This document shows, one piece after another, positions 8,977 through 52,827 of a stretch of 64,000 bases of DNA. Position 1 is the stretch's first letter. Each line of letters begins with the position of its first letter. Under the pieces are notes generated by a model that was not told where the DNA came from, did not search any database, and saw only the letters and a program-made list of their open reading frames with translations. The stretch covers positions 131,440,001 through 131,504,000 of the forward strand of contig OZ024745.1 in the NCBI GenBank assembly GCA_964016885.1, written 5' to 3'. The translations under genes and the position numbers were made by a program. The stretch comes from Eledone cirrhosa (lineage: Eukaryota).

Positions 8977-9612
8977 CAATGAAGTTGGTGTCACAGATGG
9001 TTTATATGACTTTATGATGGCTTCACAGATGGTTTATATGACTTTATGATGGCTTATATCAATGAAGTTGGTGTCACAGATGGTTTATATGACTTTATGA
9101 TGGCTTATATCAATGAAGTTGGTGTCACAGATGGTTTATATGACTTTATGATGGCTTATATCAATGGAGTTGGTGTCACAGATGGTTTATATGACTTTAT
9201 AATGGCTTATATCAATGAAGTTGGTGTCACAGATGGTTTATATGACTTTATGATGGCTTATATCAATGAAGTTGGTGTCACAGATGGTTTATATAACTTT
9301 ATGATGGCTTATATCAATGAAGTTGGTGTCACATATGGTTTATATGACTTTATGATGGCTTATATCAATGAAGTTGGTGTCACAGATGGTTTATATGACT
9401 ATATGATGGCTTATATCAATGAAGTTGATGTCACAGGTGGTTTATATGACTATATGGTGGCTTATATCAATGAAGTTGATGTCACAGATGGTTTATATGA
9501 CTTTATGATGGCTTATATCAATGAAGTTGGTGTCACAGATGGTTTATATGACTATATGATGGCTTATATCAATGAAGTTGGTATCACACATGGTATGACT
9601 TTATGATGGCTA
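8977..9612. repeat. 51-bp minisatellite, about 12 copies
   Basis: Unit aatgaagttggtgtcacagatggtttatatgactttatgatggcttatatc; one frame stays open (MMAYINEVGVTDGLYDF repeats). Confidence 0.95.
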
Positions 9613-10654
9613 TCATAAACACTAGATTTGAGACTCTTCAAGATATCTCAGACAGTAAGCCAACAGATTTGAACAATTTGATAGTTTTATTCTCATAACA
9701 TCGTCAGTGTAGTGCAACAGAAACTAGGCAGCAGGTCAGCAGCAGGTGATTAGCAAACTAATGGATGTTAAATCATATAATAATTTTATTCTAGTTAGTT
9801 CAAAGGCAACCTAACACCAGGGTTGTTATTTACTATACACTAACAGAAGGTTGTGAAGACAAGGAGAGTATGCAGCTAAAATAGACCACCTACCTAAACA
9901 TAACCAGCTATTGATAATAGTAAAACCATAATAGTCATTTAAAACACAAATATTCTGTTATATTTACTTTTTGTTTTATTTTATGATATACATTATTATG
10001 GATAAAATTTGTGTTATTCTATATCCATAACCTGGTCATTAATACTTTATTTTACTTTGTCAAACAAGTTCAACACCAAAACAATTTTGATTAAGACAAA
10101 AATAAAATAATGAAGGAGTTTACTTACCAAAATTAAGTAATTATTGTTTTTATCCACAAAAACAAAGAGTTGAAATTGTATATATTGTTTCCAATTGTTA
10201 ATAAATATGAACAATTTAACTGTAAAGTGGGCAAAATATTTGCAAACTAACTGTGTAATTCCTTGCTGCTTCAAGAATTTGTTCACATGTTAATTGGTAA
10301 TGAACTGTGGCATTGTATGTTTCCATTCTATAGTAGAATTACTTTCCAATGAGCTAAAATAGAAATAAAGTGAAATTGAAGATTGGAATAATTAATATTT
10401 TAATTATTCTATAAATGAAATATTATATTTTTGTTTAGATGCCAAGTGAACTCAAATTATGTAATCTTATGATGAAAGAGATACCAGCCAAATAGAAAAT
10501 AAAGTAGTATTAGATACACTATGGAAGTGGCTCAACTAAAATTTGAAACAGTATCACAAATTAATATATTAAGCAGTAACCACTACAGTGTTCACTTTGT
10601 AAAGAACTTAGAGTAGAACAACTGGGAAATTACTTTTTATATGAAATAGAAAGT

Positions 10655-11487
10655 TTTGTGTACTGAAATAGTGACAGTATGGTCCAGAATTCAGGTATAT
10701 ATTGTGTGCTGAAATAGTGACAGTATGGTCCAGTATTCAGGTATACATTGTGTGCTGAAATAGTGACAGTATGGTCCAGTATTCAGGTATATATTGTGTA
10801 CTGAAATAGTGACAGTATGGTCCAGTATTCAGGTATACATTGTGTACTGAAATAGTGACAGTATGGTCCAGAATTCAGGTATACATTGTCTGCTGAAATA
10901 GTGACAGTATGGTCCAGTATTCAGGTATATATTGTGTACTGAAATAGTGACAGTATGGTCCAGTATTCAGGTATACATTGTGTACTGAAATAGTGACAGT
11001 ATGGTCCAGAATTCAGGTATACATTGTCTGCTGAAATAGTGACAGTATGGTCCAGAATTCAGGTATACATTGTCTGCTGAAATAGTGACAGTATGGTCCA
11101 GAATTCAGGTATACATTGTCTGCTGAAATAGTGACAGTATGGTCCAGTATTCAGGTATACATTGTGTGCTGAAATAGTGACAGTATGGTCCAGTATTCAG
11201 GTATATATTGTGTACTGAAATAGTGACAGTATGGTCCAGAATTCAGGTATACATTGTCTGCTGAAATAGTGACAGTATGGTCCAGAATTCAGGTATACAT
11301 TGTCTGCTGAAATAGTGACAGTATGGTCCAGAATTCAGGTATACATTGTCTGCTGAAATAGTGACAGTATGGTCCAGAATTCAGGTATACATTGTCTGCT
11401 GAAATAGTGACAGTATGGTCCAGTATTCAGGTATACATTGTCTGCTGAAATAGTGACAGTATGGTCCAGAATTCAGGCATACATTCT
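10655..11487. repeat. 46-bp minisatellite, about 18 copies
   Basis: Unit attgtgtactgaaatagtgacagtatggtccagaattcaggtatac. Confidence 0.95.
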
Positions 11488-11851: not shown

Positions 11852-11891
<40 letters not shown>

Positions 11892-12038
11892 TTTTTTCCG
11901 TTGTGTTGTAATATAAATATTACACACAGTAGATTATCAGCTCACGTAGAGTTTGCTCGACGGTTCCAGTTGTAGTTCCAAAAGTAATCCGGAGAAAAAT
12001 AGAAAGATTTGAATGGATACAGTTTAGTTGAAAGGAAT

Positions 12039-12155
12039 TTATTGACACGTGTTTCTATAACAGTTACATAACCTAAAACAGCTATCTACAAACTTTTAGT
12101 TATGCAGACATTCAATATTTCAATGTTATTGTTTACTGTCATTTCATCAGAATAA
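12039..12155 (-). ncRNA. Mirror copy of the Naiad hammerhead in the inverted duplication
   Basis: Reverse complement of 15510-15626. Confidence 0.75.
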
Positions 12156-12582
12156 TATTACTGAGGACCTATTTAGTTTTTATAGAGAATATTAGGAGGA
12201 AGGGGTGAAGTTGTTAGAAGAATAGTTGAAGGAGTGGTTTTTCGATAGCAGTGAGAATTCTTGGTGGCAGTGATTAATTAGATTCCCATCTGTTGTTTTG
12301 ACATTTTTTATAGAATATATTATTGGTTATTTTTCTAAATCTATAGAAGGATTAGAGATAGTAAAGATATGCGTGGTTGGTTTTGTGTTTGCACTTAACA
12401 TTCAGACTTAAATTTTTCTTTCAAGTGTACGTATTCTTTCACCCACGCATTCACACACAAATATATTTGCACACCTCTACAAAATACATATACTCACAAT
12501 TCACATATTCATACTTACATATATATACACATGCATACACATATATATACACACATGTATTCATGTACATACATACGCGCTC

Positions 12583-14559
12583 ATTGTAGTAAAAGCGGAC
12601 AAAACATCAAACCTGTACACTATGGATTGCACTACATACAACAACTTCATTCGAAAAGAATTACATAAAAAATATAGAAAAACGAGTGAAGTAACCCTTA
12701 AGCACATCAATGATGAGGCATGCGAAATAGTGAAAAATCTCGGAATCGAAGATAGGACAGGACCACTCTTACCGGCGGTACCCACTTTCAATCTTAAGGA
12801 CCACAAGGTAAACTTTGATAATGACCCTAAAATTAGATTAATCTGCCCCTCTAAATCAGATATAGGTAAAATAAGCAAATATATCTTAGATAGAATCATC
12901 CCCCAAATTAAGGCTAAGATTAACATTAAACTCTGGGGGAAGACCCAAGAAGCAATAAGATGGTTTAATAGCATTAGCAATAAGAATAAATCTAAGTTTA
13001 TCCAGTTTGATATCGATGAATATTACTCATCGATATCACCTGAAACTTTGAATAGAGCCATTAAGTTTGCTAAGGATAACTCCGACCTTACAAACGATGA
13101 AATTAAGATTATATTAGAAGCTAGGAAAACTATAGTCAAATTTGAGAACAGTTATTGGGTACGTAAAGATAGACCCTCTAACTTTGACATAACAATGGGC
13201 TCTAACGATTCGGCGGAAATAACTGATATTGTGGGGTTATTTATCGCCTTTAGACTCCAGGAAAAATTCAGCAATCTCCACGGCGGAATATACCGCGACG
13301 ATGTTCTCCTCCTAGCTAAAAACCTTAATAACCAAAAACTAGAAAAACTACGCAAAGATATAAGAAAACTACTACTCGAAATAGGACTAACTATAACATA
13401 TGAATACAACCTTAAAGTAGTTAACTTCCTGGATGTCACACTCAATTTAAACTCTGGTTTGATTAAACCGTTTCATAAATTGAATGAAAATCTCAAATAC
13501 GTAAATGTTGGGTCTAACCACCCCATCTCTATAATTAAATCTATCCCTAAAAATATTTCCCTTAGAATCTCGGGTCTATCTTCTAACATACAAGTATTTA
13601 AGGAACACGCCGAGTACTACGATAACGCCCTTAGTAAAGCAGGCTACCTCAACAAAATAGAGTACATAGATGGGAACAATCAAAACACCCAAAATAAATC
13701 CCACATAGGTAGATATAATAACACAACACCAAACCACACTTACTACCATAGTATGCACACCAGTAAACCAACAAACAAAACTAATAGAAAGCGATGCAAA
13801 GAGTACTTATGGTATAACCCCGAATACAATAGCTCCATTAGTACAAATTTACCAGTACTCTTCTTTAAAATAATTAAAAGACATTTTCCCACATCACACA
13901 AATACCACAAAATCCTAAACCCTACCACTATAAGACTGTCATACTCTACAGCGTTAAACCTTGAACAACACATAAAAAAGATCAATACTAGAAGGTTAAA
14001 CGAAAACACTAAGAACTTAAGTACAAAGAACCCCAAAAAAACAGTAGACAATACACTACAGAACATAAATAAACCACACCTAAGTTCGTCCGCAATACTA
14101 CTCCAGAGAAAACCCAACGTACACAACTGTAACTGCACCTATCCTGACAACTGCCCCCTCGGCAATAACTGCCTGGAAAAAAATATTATTTATAAGTGTA
14201 CCATTAAATCCGGAGGCAACGAGTGGTATTACGTGGGATCAACGGCAACATCGTTTAAATCTCGATTGTATAGGCATTCTTACTCAATAAAACACCAGAG
14301 CCAAAGAAATGTAACAACTTTAGCAGAGAAAGCTTGGACGCTCAGGGATAGCAATCAAAAGTTTACCCTAAAATGGGAAAAATTAGCTAAAACCCAAAGC
14401 TTTTCCAGGAGCCAAAATTTCTGCAAATTGTGTAATCTTGAGATTTATTACATAATCACACACAAGAAGAAACTGCTGAATAACAGAATTGAACGAACAT
14501 TATTCTGCCGTCACAGAACTAAAACCCTTTTTTCCCACTACAAGCCGAATATTACATAA
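12583..14559 (+). CDS. 5'-truncated Penelope-like (Naiad) reverse transcriptase / GIY-YIG endonuclease polyprotein
   Basis: The frame is open from 12583 (IVVKADKTSNLY, the PLE DKx motif; first ATG at 12622). RT motifs: FIQFDIDEYYSSI, FDITMGSNDSAE, GIYRDD, FLDVTL. Linker WYNP. Endonuclease: CNCx5CPL..CL..NIIYK...YYVGST..FKSR, CxxCxxE, LN, CRH. No internal stops. Confidence 0.93.
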   Translation: MVVKADKTSNLYTMDCTTYNNFIRKELHKKYRKTSEVTLKHINDEACEIVKNLGIEDRTGPLLPAVPTFNLKDHKVNFDNDPKIRLICPSKSDIGKISKYILDRIIPQIKAKINIKLWGKTQEAIRWFNSISNKNKSKFIQFDIDEYYSSISPETLNRAIKFAKDNSDLTNDEIKIILEARKTIVKFENSYWVRKDRPSNFDITMGSNDSAEITDIVGLFIAFRLQEKFSNLHGGIYRDDVLLLAKNLNNQKLEKLRKDIRKLLLEIGLTITYEYNLKVVNFLDVTLNLNSGLIKPFHKLNENLKYVNVGSNHPISIIKSIPKNISLRISGLSSNIQVFKEHAEYYDNALSKAGYLNKIEYIDGNNQNTQNKSHIGRYNNTTPNHTYYHSMHTSKPTNKTNRKRCKEYLWYNPEYNSSISTNLPVLFFKIIKRHFPTSHKYHKILNPTTIRLSYSTALNLEQHIKKINTRRLNENTKNLSTKNPKKTVDNTLQNINKPHLSSSAILLQRKPNVHNCNCTYPDNCPLGNNCLEKNIIYKCTIKSGGNEWYYVGSTATSFKSRLYRHSYSIKHQSQRNVTTLAEKAWTLRDSNQKFTLKWEKLAKTQSFSRSQNFCKLCNLEIYYIITHKKKLLNNRIERTLFCRHRTKTLFSHYKPNIT

Positions 14560-14828
14560 AAGAGGGACATCCCCCAACTATATAAACCTTAATCTAGTTA
14601 GAAAAATATAAAAACAATCTCTTTTCAACATATATTAATAACCTTAAATTACCATACTAATAATGAAAAGATATGCTGATGAGAATAGGTACAAATATGC
14701 GATAATGAATGTGTCTAAAAACGTCCATAAGTATGTATATATATGTGAAAATGTATATAAATAAGTAAATATATATATATGTTTGATGTGTATAGTTAGA
14801 TGTAAGTGTATTCATGTATTAAAGTGCT

Positions 14829-14877
<49 letters not shown>

Positions 14878-15509
14878 GTATGTGTATATATATATATATA
14901 TATATGTATGTATATATATGTATATGTATATATGTATGTATATATGTGTATGTATGTATGTGTATATGGATGTGTATGTATGTGTATGTGTGTACACATG
15001 GACTAGAGTATGTATGTATATATGTGTGTGTCTATACGTGTGTATATATAAAGATAAGTTGAGTATGAAAATGTATACACATGAGCGCGTATGTATGTAC
15101 ATGAATACATGTGTGTATATATATGTGTATGCATGTGTATATATATGTAAGTATGAATATGTGAATTGTGAGTATATGTATTTTGTAGAGGTGTGCAAAT
15201 ATATTTGTGTGTGAATGCGTGGGTGAAAGAATACGTACACTTGAAAGAAAAATTTAAGTCTGAATGTTAAGTGCAAACACAAAACCAACCACGCATATCT
15301 TTACTATCTCTAATCCTTCTATAGATTTAGAAAAATAACCAATAATATATTCTATAAAAAATGTCAAAACAACAGATGGGAATCTAATTAATCACTGCCA
15401 CCAAGAATTCTCACTGCTATCGAAAAACCACTCCTTCAACTATTCTTCTAACAACTTCACCCCTTCCTCCTAATATTCTCTATAAAAACTAAATAGGTCC
15501 TCAGTAATA

Positions 15510-15626
15510 TTATTCTGATGAAATGACAGTAAACAATAACATTGAAATATTGAATGTCTGCATAACTAAAAGTTTGTAGATAGCTGTTTTAGGTTATGTA
15601 ACTGTTATAGAAACACGTGTCAATAA
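15510..15626 (+). ncRNA. Type I hammerhead ribozyme with an 88-nt branched stem II
   Basis: Stem I ttatt/aataa; CTGATGA at 15515-15521; stem II base atgacagt/actgttat; GAAA at 15610-15613; palindromic stem III cacgtg; GUC cleavage triplet ending at 15621. Confidence 0.75.
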
Positions 15627-17514
15627 ATTCCTTTCAACTAAACTGTATCCATTCAAATCTTTCTATATATATATATATATATATATTAGTAAAAGAATGA
15701 AGAATAACATGGTTGGCTGTACAATAGAGTTTATTTAGAGTACTCATAATCTCTAGCTGGATTACCTTAAATGATACCTTGTTATCCTATATATATTTCT
15801 CTCTCTCCCTCTCTCTGTATATATAGACCTAGCCAGTGTCTGGCAGATATGGGGTTCAATTCCTCATAACAGCTGGTGGCAACGTCTTTTTCTGTCTAAC
15901 AGTCTTCCCCCTATTTTATAAGCTATTTTATATCAAAGTTTCTACTTTTTACTTTCATACAATTTATTCCTTTAATTCCTTATATAATATTCCAATAACT
16001 CGCTACTCCACTAAAGACAACCCCCAGGTTCATTATCACTCTAACAGACATAAGATATTTCTCTGACTATATTTTTAAATCTCAAAATTACCTGATTTAT
16101 AAACCTATATTCTTGTAAGTGAATTATGTTTCAAACTGGACATTCTCTAGCCACTTCTTAGTCCTTTTCTGCCATTTCTTCAGGTTTATAATTCCCCTAT
16201 ATAAACCTACTTCAATATACTAACTAATGTTTTAAGTTTCTATGGAACAAACAAGTTCATACATCTGACAACAAAGAGCTCAATAAATGTAATTTACTCT
16301 ATCAGTGACTAGTACTGGCTTCTTATCTATCTATTTAATCAGTTTAAACGTCTGTATAAAGCTAGTAAGCTATGATAGACAAGAGAAAGTATTTAGTACT
16401 TCTTACAGTTAAGAAACAACGAAAACAAGATAGAGATAAGTGAATATAAACTAAAACTAAAAACAAATTTTAAATATGGAAGTCCAATGGGAGTCAGAAT
16501 AAACAATAAAAAATAAAGAATAAATGGAAAAGAAGGGAAGTTATTTTGTGGACTATTAAACTAATGAGAAATTACATCTGAACATAGGGATACATGAAGG
16601 CATTTTGAAAGAGATATACCAATTATAATTGTGTAATTGTGTGGAATTGAATTAATAAAGACATTTGATATCTTTACTCTGCTGGTGACTTATTGATGAT
16701 ACACTGATACACACCATGTATTGTGTACTATGTGAATACTAGTCCACTTGTTCTTTTACTCAAGATTACCAAATGTGTATTTTATATGTGAGTGTGTACA
16801 TATTTAAAGAAAGTAGTTAATTGTCTGACTGAACCAAGGAAACTATGTTTCCATTGATCATTCCATTACTGATATCAGTCACAACCCTTCACAGACTCAC
16901 AGAAGCAACACCACAAAAAGCACCCAGTCCAATCTTTAAAGTGGTTGTGTTGGTGACATGACAAAAAGCACCCAGCCCACCCAGTAAAGTGGTTGTTCTG
17001 GTAATATGATGAAAAAGTACCTAGTTCAATCCGTCAGTTGGTAATTGTAGTGCCACATTGGCATTAGGAAAGACACAGCCATGGAAACCAAACCAGAAAC
17101 AGTTCTATATGAGCAACATACAATTATCTGTTCTGACTTGTCTCACAATAGGACAACTCGTCTAACCCATGCTAGCATGGAAAATAGATGTTAAATAATG
17201 ATGATGATGATGGGATTTGAACTCAGAATTCATGGTACTAAAACAAATACTTCAAAGCATCCCTTCTAACTGACAATTCTACCAATCCTCCACTAAAGAA
17301 CTCGTACTTTATTTATCAACCTCAAGATGATGAAAAACAAAGTTGACATCAGCAAGATTAGAACTCCGAGCACAGAGACATTTAATATGCATGTAAATAA
17401 GTCACCATTTTTACATATGTTTTTTCCATGCTTGCAGGGGCTGGATGATACTTTTTGAGGCAGGTTTTCTATGGCCAGGTGCCTTTCCAGATGCTAACTA
17501 TAATATATATATAT

Positions 17515-17676
17515 GTCCCAAGGCTCTGATACCATCAACACCATAAACACAGCTGACATATCTAAGAACTGACTAACTGCCTGATGAGGTCATAGCCATT
17601 CAATGGCTATCATCGAAATATATATAGCACTAAATAAAAGATTATGAGTTCATGCAATTGACTTATGTTTCGTCAC
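17515..17676 (+). mobile_element. Short PLE-like 3' insert with a minimal hammerhead, between (TA)n tracts
   Basis: tgc-CTGATGA (17581)-ggtcatagccattcaatggctatcatc-GAAA (17615)-tatata-TA-gca, then AATAAA. Stem I is short (3 bp plus a mismatch). Confidence 0.7.
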
Positions 17677-17695
17677 TATATATATATATATATAT

Positions 17696-18545
17696 GATTC
17701 CGTCAGGGAAATGGCCATGTTCGATATGCAGAAAAGGAACTGGCATAAATTCTATAAAATGCACACAATGCAGATCCTGGGTACACAAGAGATGTAGCGG
17801 GATAGCAGGCAAACTAACAGGTAGGGAGAAATATGTTTGCAGTAGATGTACAGGGAAATTAGACAGTAGAAGTCGCACTGATAGACACATTTTTCAAATG
17901 CAAGAGGGCGCTATAGAAGTGGTGGATAGCTTCCGGTACCACGAGATCAGATTAGCATGGGAGGAGGGTGTTCCGAGGCCATAGTATCTAGAATAAGGAC
18001 GGGTTGGAAGAAGTTTAGGGAGCTGCTTCCTCTGTTGACGAAGAAGGGTTTCTCCCTGCGTACGAAAGGCCGGTTGTATGATGCCTGTGTGAGGAGCGCG
18101 ATGCTGCATGGTAGTGAGACATGGGCAGCAACTGCAGAGGATATGTGACGGCTGGAGAGAAATGAGGCAAGCATGCTCCGTTGGATGTGCAGTGTAAATG
18201 TGCGTGAACGACCCAGCATAAATGTGTTGAGAGAGAAACTGTGTCTGAGAGGGATAGAATGTAGTGTACGGGAGAGGAGACTGAGGTGGTATGGACATGT
18301 GATGTGCATGGAGGATGACCGATGGGTGAAGAAGTGCCAGGAATTGCCAGTTGAAGGAAGATGTGGTAGAGGTAGACCACGAAAAACATGGGCGGAGGTA
18401 GTGAGAACAGACCTCAGATCATTGAAGCTCACGGTGGAGATGACGAGGGACCGTGACGAGTGGAGAGATGCTGTGCTGAATAAGACCCGTCCCACCCTTG
18501 CAAGCAGGGAAAATCGGACGTAAAATGATGATGATGATGATGATG
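17696..18545 (+). mobile_element. RTE-clade LINE, 5'-truncated and disrupted
   Basis: Cys-rich insert GKWPCSICRKG...C..C..WVHKRC, then RIRTGWKKFREL...LYDACVRSAMLHGSETW, RRLRWYGHV and GRGRPRKTW. It has a frameshift, a stop and a (GAT)n tail. Confidence 0.9.
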
Positions 18546-33729: not shown

Positions 33730-34168
33730 AAAATCAAAAGATGGTTAAAAGAGTTCCATGTATTTTATTATGTGCATTTCAAAAACAAATATCATGGGAT
33801 GATATTTGTGTTCTCATCAGATAAAATAGGGAGACATGATATGAAGCTTAAAAAACACTTGCGAGCAATGAAGTGTTAAATCAACATATGTATGCCCAAT
33901 GCTCAGTAAAACACATGTTGATTTAACGCTTCATTGCTCGCAAGTGTTTTTTAAGCTTCATATCATGTCTCTATTTTATCTGATGAGAACGCAAATATCA
34001 TCCCATGATGATATTTGTTTTTGAAATGTACATAATAAAATACATGGAACTCTTTTAACCATCTTTTGATTTTTTATATTATTTTTGCTCCAGTCCTATA
34101 AACTGTTGAGTGCTACTTATCCGATATTTGCATTGCTTTATTGTGCTACAATAAAACTCACCTCCTAC

Positions 34169-37941: not shown

Positions 37942-39237
37942 GTGGACGGTATTTGTTCGCAATTTTCAACTGCTAATTTTATGCAAATATCTTTTACTTC
38001 TGTTGTCACTCTTGTCTTCATAAAAACTGACTATATTTCCATTATTTATTTTCAGAATAATTGATTATGAATAATTTTGAACCTCCAAATTTGTGGAAGA
38101 GACACAGAGTTCTTGGAATCCGCGCCGGGAGGACAAATAAGGAAATTTCAGACTTTCTCAGTGTGAACAGGAGAATGGTGGAAAAGGTAAGAAAGGAATT
38201 GGAAGAATCAGGATTCGACTACGAAGGAACATCAGAGAGGAAAACACATGATCGACGATCTGACGCCTTCAGAATGCCCGAGTTCGTCACTGAAGTTCAG
38301 GATATCATCAACAATGAACCTAGCAAGTCGATGCATGCCATTGCAAGGGAGAAAGGCGTGGATGAAAAGCTCATTAGACTAGTGGTACATGAAGACATTC
38401 GCTACGTCTCATACAAGATGAGGAAAGGACAATTTCTGCCAAAGGCGATGCAAGAAAAGCGACTGAAGCACGCAAAGAAGCTGATCAACAAGTTGAAACA
38501 CCCACTGGAGCCAGACATGCTGTGGTTTTTCTCCGACGAGAAAAACTTCTGCCAAGACCAGAAGATCAACTCCCAGAACAACAGGTGGCTCGCTGTCTCA
38601 TCCAAAGACGTGCCCAGAGTCATGCAGACAAAGTTTCCAGCAATAACATTGGTCTTAGGTGTCGTCAGCAGTCAAGGTGACGTCATGCCACCTCACTTCT
38701 TCCCTGAGGTCCTCAAGCTGAACACTGATGGCTACATCCACGTTCTGAGTGAGGTAGTAAAGACCTGGATCGACCAGGTAGCTGCAGGTAGGCCTTACGT
38801 GTGGCAGCAAGACTCAGCGCGCTGCCATACCAGCCAAAAGACCCAACCCTGGCTGTCAGAGAACTTCGTCGACCACACTTCATCTGACATCTGGCCTCTC
38901 AGCTCGCCTGACTGCAACCGCCTCAACTTCTTTGTGTTGGGTGCAGTGGAACGAGATATCAACAGATTTAGTTGCAATATGAAAGACGATCTGAAGGCCA
39001 GGATCACAAGTGCCTTTAGGGGCCTAAGTCGGGGGACAGTGACGAAGGCCTGTAGCCGGTTCTGAGGCCACTTTGAGGCCGTCATCAAAGCCAATGGCTG
39101 GCTTATCGAGTGAGATCGAAAGAACAAGTCATGAAGACAAACTGACCCAAGTTTGATAAATATATCTTAAAAAATAAAACTACCATGTTATTTTTTCCTA
39201 GACAGTAATCTTGCGAACAAATATCGTCCGCACCCTG
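37936..39237 (+). mobile_element. Tc1/mariner superfamily transposon, maT (DD37D) type, 1.3 kb
   Basis: 27-bp TIRs (tagggtgtggacggtatttgttcgcaa / ttgcgaacaaatatcgtccgcaccctg) flanked by TA. Confidence 0.92.
38061..39113 (+). pseudogene. DD37D transposase, inactivated
   Basis: WFFSDEK, WQQD and SPDCNRLN, with 37 residues between D2 and the third catalytic position, which is N. A premature TGA at 39063 precedes ...FEAVIKANGWLIE*. Both changes are consistent with CpG deamination. Confidence 0.88.
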
Positions 39238-49480: not shown

Positions 49481-49669
49481 CACATTACAAAAGGTGGCTA
49501 ACCCCTGATTTAGGGGCTTCAAGAAAATCCCTACTGTTTTATCAATATTAATATAAATCAATGTAACAAACATGTTAGTTATGTTTTTTTAAATAAAAGT
49601 AATATGACAGGCCACCACGTGGGACCCCATTTGCTCATAATAGTAAGAGATGGGGAGGGCAAGAGAGAT

Positions 49670-52454
49670 GGGGAGGGCGGTGACAGTGGGAGTTTGAGAG
49701 AGAGGGGGGAGATGACAGTGGGAGTTTGAGAGAGAGAGGGGGGAGGACAGTGGGAGTTTGAGAGAGAGAGGGGGGAGGACAGTGGGAGTTTGAGAGAGAG
49801 AGGGGGGAGGACAGTGGGAGTTTGAGAGAGAGAGGGGGGGGGAGATGACAGTGGGAGTTTGAGAGAGGGGGGGAGAGATGACAGGAGTTTGAGAGAGAGA
49901 GGGGGGAGATGACAGTGGGAGTTTGAGAGAAAGGGGGGAGATGACAGTGGGAGTTTGAGAGAGAGGGGGGAGATGACAGTGGGAGTTTGAGAGAGAGGGG
50001 GGAGATGACAGTGGGAGTTTGAGAGAGAGGGGGGAGGTGACAGTGGGAGTTTGAGAGAAAGGGGGGAGATGACAGTGGGAGTTTGAGAGAGAGGGGGGAG
50101 ATGACAGTGGGAGTTTGAGAGAGAGGGGGGAGATGACAGTGGGAGTTTGAGAGAGAGGGGGGAGATGACAGTGGGAGTTTGAGAGAGAGGGGGGAGATGA
50201 CAGTGGGAGTTTGAGAGAAAGGGGGGAGGTGACAGTGGGAGTTTGAGAGAAAGGGGGGAGGTGACAGTGAGAGTTTGAGAGAGAGGGGGGAGATGACAGT
50301 GAGAGTTTGAGAGAGAGGGGGGAGATGACAGTGGGAGTTTGAGAGAGAGGGGGGAGATGACAGTGGGAGTTTGAGAGAAAGGGGGGAGATGACAGTGGGA
50401 GTTTGAGAGAAAGGGGGGAGATGACAGTGGGAGTTTGAGAGAGAGATGGGGGAGATGACAGTGGGAGTTTGAGAGAGATGGGGGAGATGACAGTGAGAGT
50501 TTGAGAGAGAGGGGGGAGATGACAGTGGGAGTTTGAGAGAAAGGGGGAGATAACAGTGGGAGTTTGAGAGAGAGGGGGGAGATGACAGTGGGAGTTTGAG
50601 AGAAAGGGGGGAGATGACAGTGGGAGTGAGAGAAAGGGGGGAGATGACAGTGGGAGTTTGAGAGAGAGATGGGGGAGATGACAGTGGGAGTTTGAGAGAG
50701 ATGGGGAGATGACAGTGGGAGTTTGAGAGAAAGGGGGGAGATGACAGTGGGAGTTTGAGAGAGATGGGGAGATGACAGTGGGAGTTTGAGAGAAAGGGGG
50801 GAGATGACAGTGGGAGTTTGAGAGAAAGGGGGGAGATGACAGTGGGAGTTTGAGAGAGATGGGGAGATGACAGTGGGAGTTTGAGAGAGAGGGGGAGATG
50901 ACAGTGGGAGTTTGAGAGAAAGGGGGGAGATGACAGTGGGAGTTTGAGAGGGAGATGGGGGAGATGACAGTGGGAGTTTGAGAGAGATGGGGAGATGACA
51001 GTGGGAGTTTGAGAGAAAGGGGGGAGATGACAGTGGGAGTTTGAGAGAGATGGGGAGATGACAGTGGGAGTTTGAGAGAAAGGGGGGAGATGACAGTGGG
51101 AGTTTGAGAGAAAGGGGGGAGATGACAGTGGGAGTTTGAGAGAGATGGGGAGATGACAGTGGGAGTTTGAGAGAAAGGGGGGAGATGACAGTGGGAGTTT
51201 GAGAGAAAGGGGGGAGATGACAGTGGGAGTTTGAGAGAAAGGGGGGAGATGACAGTGGGAGTTTGAGAGAGATGGGGAGATGACAGTGGGAGTTTGAGAG
51301 AAAGGGGGGAGATGACAGTGGGAGTTTGAGAGAGATGGGGAGATGACAGTGGGAGTTTGAGAGAAAGGGGGGAGATGACAGTGGGAGTTTGAGAGAAAGG
51401 GGGGAGATGACAGTGGGAGTTTGAGAGAGATGGGGAGATGACAGTGGGAGTTTGAGAGAAAGGGGGGAGATGACAGTGGGAGTTTGAGAGAGAGGGGGGA
51501 GATGACAGTGGGAGTTTGAGAGAGATGACAATGGGAGTTTGAGAGAGAGGGGGGAGATGACAGTGGGAGTTTGAGAGAAAGGGGGGAGATGACAGTGGGA
51601 GTTTGAGAGAAAGGGGGGAGATGACAGTGGGAGTTTGAGAGAAAGGGGGGAGATGACAGTGGGAGTTTGAGAGAAAGGGGGGAGATGACAGTGGGAGTTT
51701 GAGAGAGATGGGGAGATGACAGTGGGAGTTTGAGAGAAAGGGGGGAGATGACAGTGGGAGTTTGAGAGAGAGGGGGGAGATGACAGTGGGAGTTTGAGAG
51801 AAAGGGGGGAGATGACAGTGGGAGTTTGAGAGAAAGGGGGGAGATGACAGTGGGAGTTTGAGAGAGATGGGGAGATGACAGTGGGAGTTTGAGAGAAAGG
51901 GGGGAGATGACAGTGGGAGTTTGAGAGAGATGGGGAGATGACAGTGGGAGTTTGAGAGAAAGGGGGGAGATGACAGTGGGAGTTTGAGAGAAAGGGGGGA
52001 GATGACAGTGGGAGTTTGAGAGAGATGGGGAGATGACAGTGGGAGTTTGAGAGAAAGGGGGGAGATGACAGTGGGAGTTTGAGAGAGAGGGGGGAGATGA
52101 CAGTGGGAGTTTGAGAGAGATGGGGAGATGACAGTGGGAGTTTGAGAGAAAGGGGGGAGATGACAGTGGGAGTTTGAGAGAAAGGGGGGAGATGACAGTG
52201 GGAGTTTGAGAGAAAGGGGGGAGATGACAGTGGGAGTTTGAGAGAAAGGGGGGAGATGACAGTGGGAGTTTGAGAGAAAGGGGGGAGATGACAGTGGGAG
52301 TTTGAGAGAGATGGGGAGATGACAGTGGGAGTTTGAGAGAAAGGGGGGAGATGACAGTGGGAGTTTGAGAGAGAGGGGGGAGATGACAGTGGGAGTTTGA
52401 GAGAGATGACAGTGGGAGTTTGAGAGAGAGGGGGGAGATGACAGTGGGAGTTTA
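49670..52454. repeat. 31-32-bp G/A-rich satellite, about 2.8 kb
   Basis: Unit gatgacagtgggagtttgagagaaagggggga; source of the spurious 650-aa ORF. Confidence 0.96.
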
Positions 52455-52827
52455 GCTCCCGTGTTCAGACCTAGTGTACATGTGTGTGTGTATTTTTACA
52501 CTACCGACTCCAATTTAATAACGTTACATAATGTTACAAAGGAAAGTTTTCAATAATTATAAACACATCCGTTCAATATATATTATTTATATTGTTTACC
52601 GAAGAGGCCGGGGGAGGGCAAGGGCAGTAAAATTCCGAACTCAGATTCACTGCTGAGTTGTTTCGTTTAACGTACTACCTTATGATTAAATTAAACAAGA
52701 TCAGTATAAATAGGTAGGCGTTTATGGAGTTAGAATTTTAATAATTTGACAACCGTTGCCCTAATATAACCTCACATCATGACATTTTAACAGGAAATTA
52801 TAACTTTCTCCAGATTATATTAAACAA

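Follow-up and report, generated by a model that had tools for sequence, protein, structure and literature searches.

A Hydra-Clade Penelope-Like Element of Eledone cirrhosa Carries a Type I Hammerhead Motif with an 88-nt Stem II Arm

The window analysed here, a 64,000-nucleotide stretch of DNA from Eledone cirrhosa, contains a type I hammerhead motif whose two core halves are separated by an 88-nt arm, close to the 3′ end of a young Penelope-like element (PLE) assigned to the Hydra clade. On balance, we lean towards the interpretation that the stem II of this motif, predicted to be a single rod, is likely kept as an RNA structure, and that the ribozyme cuts weakly after C15621, probably as a dimer or with the help of the element's protein. 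Three other explanations of the arm, each judged less probable, are weighed below.

Hammerhead Motif

The motif comprises the following parts.

15510–15514, plus strand: 5′ strand of stem I, pairing over 5 bp with 15622–15626, read from the letters
15515–15521, plus strand: 5′ half of the core, CUGAUGA (C3–A9), read from the letters
15522–15609, plus strand: stem II region of 88 nt, with A·A at positions 10.1/11.1, an 8-bp basal helix and a predicted rod
15544–15558, plus strand: internal GAAA with an alternative stem III, predicted to be inactive
15610–15621, plus strand: 3′ half of the core (GAAA), palindromic stem/loop III and C15621, with the cut predicted 3′ of C15621
15622–15626, plus strand: 3′ strand of stem I

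The CUGANGA, GAAA and UH elements of a type I core are present and are surrounded by stems I, II and III. The GAAA occupies 15610–15613, 88 nt from CUGAUGA, where the sequence-only reading that drew attention to this locus had placed the two core halves, and C15621 is the last base of the UC triplet. The 8-bp helix drawn in that reading as closing the arm was also recovered, at 15523–15530/15601–15608, with pair probabilities of 0.90–1.0. Since A15522 stands opposite A15609, positions 10.1/11.1 are mismatched, and the usual pair at these positions (G-C) is absent in the window copy. The stem III region 15613–15620 is an 8-nt palindrome with a self-duplex energy of −10.3 kcal/mol, so that stem III has either 2 bp plus a palindromic tetraloop (monomer) or 8 bp (dimer). 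No obvious candidate for a loop I–loop II tertiary contact was found in the window motif. An alternative core using the internal GAAA at 15544, already suspected of being inactive, would have a 4-bp stem II, a 4-bp stem III and no continuous stem I, at a cost of 13 kcal/mol (−7.1 versus −20.3 kcal/mol); it was ruled out as a functional core because stem I is impossible there.

A second hammerhead with the same sequence is located at 12039–12155 on the minus strand, within a perfect 586-bp inverted repeat; neither this twin nor the A·A mismatch had been remarked on in the sequence-only reading. Our own descriptor detected 6 motifs in the window and none in five shuffled windows, and reversed-pattern controls gave no matches in 3.0 Gb of this genome. 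Given these empty controls and the fixed position of the motif before the ORF ATG, it is not a chance occurrence, and the window hammerhead is genuine as a sequence motif. An Rfam scan of the window at E ≤ 5 returned no hammerhead family, the shorter-armed motifs included; standard searches therefore overlook the long-armed motif, as had been foreseen for short descriptors. Because Rfam and short descriptors miss thousands of hammerheads in one genome, 'no hammerhead' calls in PLEs may be undercounts. The arms of 27–36 nt that had been proposed elsewhere in the window stood in part: those of 30, 33 and 36 nt pass the descriptor, while the 27-nt candidate at 17581 fails it.

Host Element

The copy that carries the motif is organised as follows.

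11885–11998, minus strand: one-sided 'tail' of the inverted arm, about 114 nt, ending in (TA)n
11999–12584, minus strand: inverted, perfect 586-bp copy of 15081–15666, with the twin hammerhead (12039–12155)
12585–14559, plus strand: 5′-truncated Hydra-clade ORF with a reverse transcriptase (RT), a CxCX5C linker and, at the C-terminus, a GIY-YIG endonuclease
14560–15509, plus strand: 3′ UTR/pLTR with a TA-TG microsatellite, covered from about 15280 by contigs of run X4 (type unrecorded)
15627–15666, plus strand: end of the element, at the first of the two 3′ ends that recur, with the (TA)n target after it

By its sequence features the element belongs to the known Hydra clade of PLEs, as delimited in Section 11 of Craig et al. 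2021 (PMC8557442, excerpts). The window copy has a single-ORF layout in which the RT precedes the GIY-YIG endonuclease, and its ORF, which lacks about 116 N-terminal codons relative to locus L010, contains the DKT motif, the CxCX5C linker, and CxxC and CxH around conserved E and N; the RWK motif was found in the N-terminus of the tandem copies L010 and L226. Columns C545, C547, C552 and C558 are invariant in 32 relatives. Inspection of the window ORF revealed no CCHH in the endonuclease, the N-termini of L010 and L226 contained no endonuclease, and a Pfam search with the element ORF returned no family. Naiad PLEs are described in the excerpts of PMC8557442 as having an N-terminal endonuclease, DKA for DKG, a CCHH motif and no canonical hammerheads. 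The label 'Naiad', under which the motif had initially been reported, was thus dropped, since the endonuclease is C-terminal, DKT replaces DKA alongside RWK and CxCX5C, and CCHH is missing.

On a quick RT tree that included relatives from this genome and from metagenomes only, six of the seven host sequences grouped together and the seventh was placed on a long branch; for L158, L225 and L227, the ORF–hammerhead links in this set are by proximity only. Published Hydra RTs were compared by eye. One homologue comes from Hydra vulgaris. Both ends of the window copy are flanked by (TA)n, which is also the target at loci L001–L060. Many family copies have open frames of 785 codons, and all 150 of the 150 endonuclease matches scored were 100% identical, and therefore the family is young. 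The window copy itself is 5′-truncated and likely a passenger. Two 3′ ends recur in the family, one lying 45 nt and the other about 160 nt past the predicted cut site; by analogy with PAc, the Poseidon element of Anolis, they are presumed to be RT start sites. The tail at 11885–11998 (minus strand) and a 560-bp non-coding unit at L141 have an 11-nt motif in common, 9 nt of which recur directly before the ORF ATG, and this could be an RT recognition signal.

Several unrelated features were observed in the window. A 5S rRNA-like sequence at 1979–2094, scoring above the Rfam gathering threshold, is probably a pseudogene or a SINE head, and a 334-codon frame at 38061–39065 with weak matches to HTH and Tc3-transposase is probably a Tc1/mariner remnant. 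A 5′-truncated LINE-like RT fragment ending in (TGA)n lies at 17740–18545, two minisatellites with units of about 54 and 43 bp occupy 9000–9610 and 10645–11480, and a long, G-skewed low-complexity tract extends over 49580–52500.

Predicted Fold of the Arm

The stem II arm is predicted to form one straight, unbranched hairpin. The minimum free energy (MFE) and centroid structures are both a single bulged rod of 35 pairs, including 6 G·U, at −24.8 kcal/mol, and all 2000 of 2000 sampled folds were unbranched, with one hairpin loop each. The branched domain originally suggested from the sequence did not survive this analysis: the two-hairpin fold reaches −14.9 kcal/mol as written and −17.5 kcal/mol after refinement, and both proposed sub-hairpins (acatt/aatgt and gcataac..taaaa/tttta..gttatgt) have a pair probability of 0.0. 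Branching was thus rejected on folding energy, pair probabilities and sampled structures. The arm alone gave a z-score of −4.9 against mononucleotide shuffles, and the signal was weaker for the arm with its flanks against dinucleotide shuffles (z −1.79). The hammerhead fold sits 4.6–6 kcal/mol above the MFE, which includes a hairpin at 15498–15521 that hides the core; the pairing strand of this hairpin differs in the oldest subfamilies.

Copies, Subfamilies and Evolution of the Arm

A search with the core pattern and a spacer of 73–100 nt yielded 2,354 matches with A at position 11.1 and 386 with another base; nearly all of the matches listed among these approximately 2,740 long-spacer copies belong to this family, a few being unrelated. 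Within the family, arms of 92, 91 and 88 nt occur. The basal helix of the more diverged subfamilies (about 92% amino-acid identity) has 11 bp and is closed by A-U, while in the younger, now dominant subfamilies it has 8 bp, with A·A instead of the closing A-U. Shortened arms represent one-off deletions, 9 different ones among 54 matches with arms of 40–70 nt and 2 among 19 matches with arms of 10–39 nt.

Compared with 14 old copies, the arm differs at 165 of 1232 positions (13.4%) and the upstream UTR at 276 of 3132 (8.8%); since the arm diverges more than the UTR between subfamilies, its sequence is not conserved. The rod was kept in 10 of 10 subfamily representatives (−19.9 to −26.8 kcal/mol), and in three copies the sense strand folds 13–16 kcal/mol better than the antisense strand, through 6–8 G·U pairs (−24.8 versus −8.7 kcal/mol here, −25.3 versus −12.6 and −23.4 versus −7.8 in older copies). 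When drift was simulated from two oldest-type copies, assuming that change proceeded from old to young, the stability of the young arm was reached in 4/400 and 6/400 trials; for two shorter steps the counts were 22/400 and 25/400, not significant. In 48 distinct sequences of the focal family (95% column identity), 96% of cells pair, and both-sided changes were found in 2 of 42 pairs, in one sequence each, a result matched by 57 of 500 shuffles and thus not significant. Variants above 5% in run X1 are located in the arm, with none in the core among those listed. Altogether, these folding models suggest that what is preserved in the arm is likely its RNA structure and not its sequence, although the G·U excess could also be explained by A-to-I editing of the template instead of selection.

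At L010:1306–1343 and 1616–1700, low-depth contigs of run X4 (type unrecorded) show A>G/T>C clusters that suggest A-to-I editing, for which double-stranded RNA from inverted arms could be the source. At L097, L101, L116 and L117, belonging to older subfamilies, several inverted junctions lie a short way upstream of the core, at distances between a few and about 100 nt (6 of 16 head-to-head pairs among the first 100 matches listed), as if the RT often switched once it had crossed the rod.

Arm Length and Basal Mismatch in Relatives

Metagenome relatives were found by an alignment-based scan; a query with a single protein found none. The motif was present in 53 of 77 Hydra-type metagenome loci, with 64 motifs in total and arms of 10–29 nt (median 17), and the 88-nt arm is three times as long as the longest of them. 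Published Hydra arms measure 12–26 nt (File S2 of PMC8557442, excerpts). The natural size range of retroelement hammerheads is thereby widened about threefold; a literature search found no description of arms this long, within an incomplete coverage, and supplements could hold examples. A basal mismatch at 10.1/11.1 was observed in 30 of the 64 metagenome motifs, always as U·U and never as A·A (0/64). A natural hammerhead with U·U at this position is active (PMC3088659, excerpts), and given such exceptions a mismatch at 10.1/11.1 is not in itself disqualifying, the precedents being U·U and not A·A.

In the genome of E. cirrhosa, arms of 12–18, 28–36, 47, 48–55, 60 and 88–92 nt occur, the 36-nt length being that of a sister family of Hydra type whose frame has 821 codons (L220). 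Because these arms form a length series, the 88-nt arm tops a local trend: among the host's Hydra-type elements lengths rise through 30–36, 47 and about 50 to 88–92 nt, and the arm stands at the far end of this lengthening and is not a unique branched module. In the group with arms of about 50 nt, which has 9,151 pattern matches, five stem II pairs change on both sides, with as many as 15 of 24 sequences affected.

This group (L140–L169, e.g., L141:930–2200) has a covarying stem II of 48–55 nt whose internal loop is rich in pyrimidines; positions 10.1/11.1 are C·A, and stem III is formed by a 10-nt palindrome. Its arm ends in a pyrimidine tract and CAG at core G12, a donor-like GTAAGT lies about 15 nt past stem I, and many copies are arranged in retrozyme-like tandem non-coding units of about 560 bp. 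Two more families with the same stem III palindrome as the focal family (L061, L077, L078, L083–L087 and L090; L062–L070) have 60-nt arms, old and with a covarying base, and 47-nt arms, the 47-nt-arm family adjoining remnants of Hydra-type ORFs. The window also contains head-to-head hammerhead pairs with arms of 30–36 nt at 33820 (−)/33980 (+) and 61901 (−)/62084 (+); its 33–36-nt arm type matches the young sister family L220.

Cleavage and Proposed Mechanism

In tandem copies the cut site lies 209 nt upstream of the ORF ATG. The corresponding distance is 141–187 nt in 15 of the 18 other relatives listed and 84–87 nt in three, in a survey covering 20 of 23 sequences with L225 left out, and this spacing supports positional homology with ordinary Hydra hammerheads. 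Past the cut site, 21 upstream ATGs were counted versus about 41 expected (19 sequences, L225 dropped), a depletion that is partly by construction.

No clear excess of copy ends at the cut site was seen across the approximately 2,740 copies: genomic junctions at 15622 made up 10 of 23 matches, those at a control site shifted by 3 nt made up 4 of 12, and several cut-site junctions are explained by microhomology. A contig of run X4, the type of which is unrecorded, crosses the cut site uncut. This run looks RNA-like: its cover nearly vanishes upstream of about 15280, a stretch in which run X1 is deep, and T>C accounts for 17 of its 33 listed differences. It consists of contigs, which showed no pile-up of ends and are given no weight here for expression, splicing or cleavage.

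PLE hammerheads with a palindromic stem III and a short stem I probably work as dimers, and their activity is expected to be low (PMC4209133, excerpts), and the hammerhead of PAc cuts only in the presence of protein, while its catalytic mutants insert normally in vitro (PMC11167929, excerpts). For the motif studied here, we propose that local folding of the rod while the RNA is being transcribed (−25 kcal/mol) brings the core halves together as an ordinary stem II would, the rod acting as an oversized stem II scaffold. Since the monomeric stem III, with 2 bp and a palindromic tetraloop, would be too weak, two motifs would pair through the 8-nt palindrome. Cutting would be partial, and uncut RNA would be the template of most new insertions, with copying begun 45 or about 160 nt downstream. 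A young family with intact ORFs, whose arm variants form a dated series from A-U to A·A and from 11 to 8 bp, provides a panel for testing both cleavage and its purpose.

Alternative Explanations

If the ribozyme is dead or dispensable, the arm would be a side effect of fold-back duplication and of RNA editing, persisting because the element needs no cleavage. The A·A found at the base of stem II in 2,354 of the roughly 2,740 copies, the faster divergence of the arm than of the UTR, and the lack of both significant covariation in the focal family and an excess of copy ends at the cut site agree with this explanation, as do the normal insertion of PAc catalytic mutants (PMC11167929, excerpts) and the success of Naiads without canonical hammerheads (PMC8557442, excerpts). 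We nevertheless consider it unlikely, if the least so of the three, in view of the strand asymmetry and retained stability of the fold, the location of run X1 variants above 5% in the arm with none in the core among those listed, the fact that deleted arms were never amplified, and the covariation of sister arms in the group of about 50 nt. An arm serving as a docking site for the RT/endonuclease protein, which would switch on the ribozyme or position reverse transcription, takes up the RT-binding role suggested in the sequence-only reading, here without branching. It would fit the protein-dependent cutting of PAc (PMC11167929, excerpts) and the recurrence of long structured arms in several families of this genome. 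Arms of different families, however, have no sequence in common, the focal arm drifts at 13%, relatives manage with 10–29 nt, and the RT start sites presumed by analogy with PAc, 45 nt and about 160 nt past the cut, lie outside the arm; such docking thus appears the most doubtful of the explanations considered.

It could also be that a spliceosomal intron has been retained inside a stem II of normal size, an explanation that we regard as rather improbable, ranking between the two above.

15529–15592, plus strand: candidate 64-nt GT..AG intron inside the arm, hypothetical, read from the letters

Splicing of this intron (68 nt in older subfamilies) would leave a 24-nt hairpin of 9 bp, so that the ribozyme would differ in activity between RNAs with and without the intron; the spliceosome would toggle the ribozyme and sort the RNA into message and intron-keeping template. 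The remainder fits the published Hydra arms of 12–26 nt (File S2 of PMC8557442, excerpts), but removal of the tip from any rod leaves a hairpin, and the splice sites were picked post hoc. GT is found at 15529, and a U-rich tract and AG at 15591–15592 in all subfamilies listed; roughly 23 nt from the end of the candidate intron lies a branch-like site, which is a better match in middle-aged subfamilies. In younger subfamilies the donor was improved by the very change that disrupted the rod; at the same time, the branch site and the pyrimidine tract were weakened. According to the excerpted literature, PLEs retain introns, and the 75-bp pLTR intron of Penelope in D. virilis ends at its hammerhead. 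Against this stand the complete lack of precisely spliced genomic copies, even with one mismatch allowed, and of a splice joint in contigs of four runs, X4 included (run types unrecorded); moreover, an internal AG is missing from the 36-nt and 47-nt sister arms, and an intron therefore cannot account for the general lengthening. If true, an intron within the ribozyme would give a reason why Penelope-like elements keep introns and would link intron retention to ribozyme control. Separately, younger subfamilies have gained, through U-to-A at 11.1, a YAG at core G12 (15609–15610) like that of L140–L169; this could be a second acceptor, and no ATG separates it from the ORF start.

Comparison with Known Systems

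The element resembles Hydra-1_Obim and the Hydra clade in its domain order, the DKT, RWK, CxCX5C and CxxC/CxH motifs and the lack of CCHH, in its (TA)n targets, inverted 5′-truncated arm and one-sided tail, and in a type I hammerhead near the 3′ end that tolerates a mismatch at the base of stem II (PMC8557442, excerpts). It differs from this clade, as far as the excerpts describe it, in its stem II of 88–92 nt versus 12–26 nt, in A·A at the base of stem II versus U·U or G-C, in a tail of about 114 nt versus 30–40 nt, and in an element length of about 3.6 kb versus less than 3 kb. With the Naiad clade it has in common the (TA)n preference, the pLTR and inverted arrangements; the N-terminal endonuclease, DKA, CCHH and lack of a canonical hammerhead reported there (PMC8557442, excerpts) are all inapplicable here.

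Like the minimal PLE hammerheads (PMC4209133, excerpts), the motif has a stem I of 4–5 bp, an enlarged helix II and a palindromic helix III that implies dimers and low expected activity; however, a 'large' helix II there means 7–8 bp with a short loop, compared with 35 predicted pairs here, and the conserved G10.1-C11.1 is absent. PLE-X1_sMoe of Selaginella likewise has a long stem II region of about 54 nt and was flagged as non-canonical (File S2 of PMC8557442, excerpts), but it is a Chlamys-related plant element without an endonuclease and has a shorter arm with a 35-nt loop. PAc (PMC11167929, excerpts) is similar in that two 3′ ends define the tail, copies derive from uncut RNA and ends at the cut site are missing; it belongs to another clade, and its ORF starts inside stem II instead of 209 nt past the cut. 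On present evidence, the hammerhead described here is a known system with one unusual dimension.
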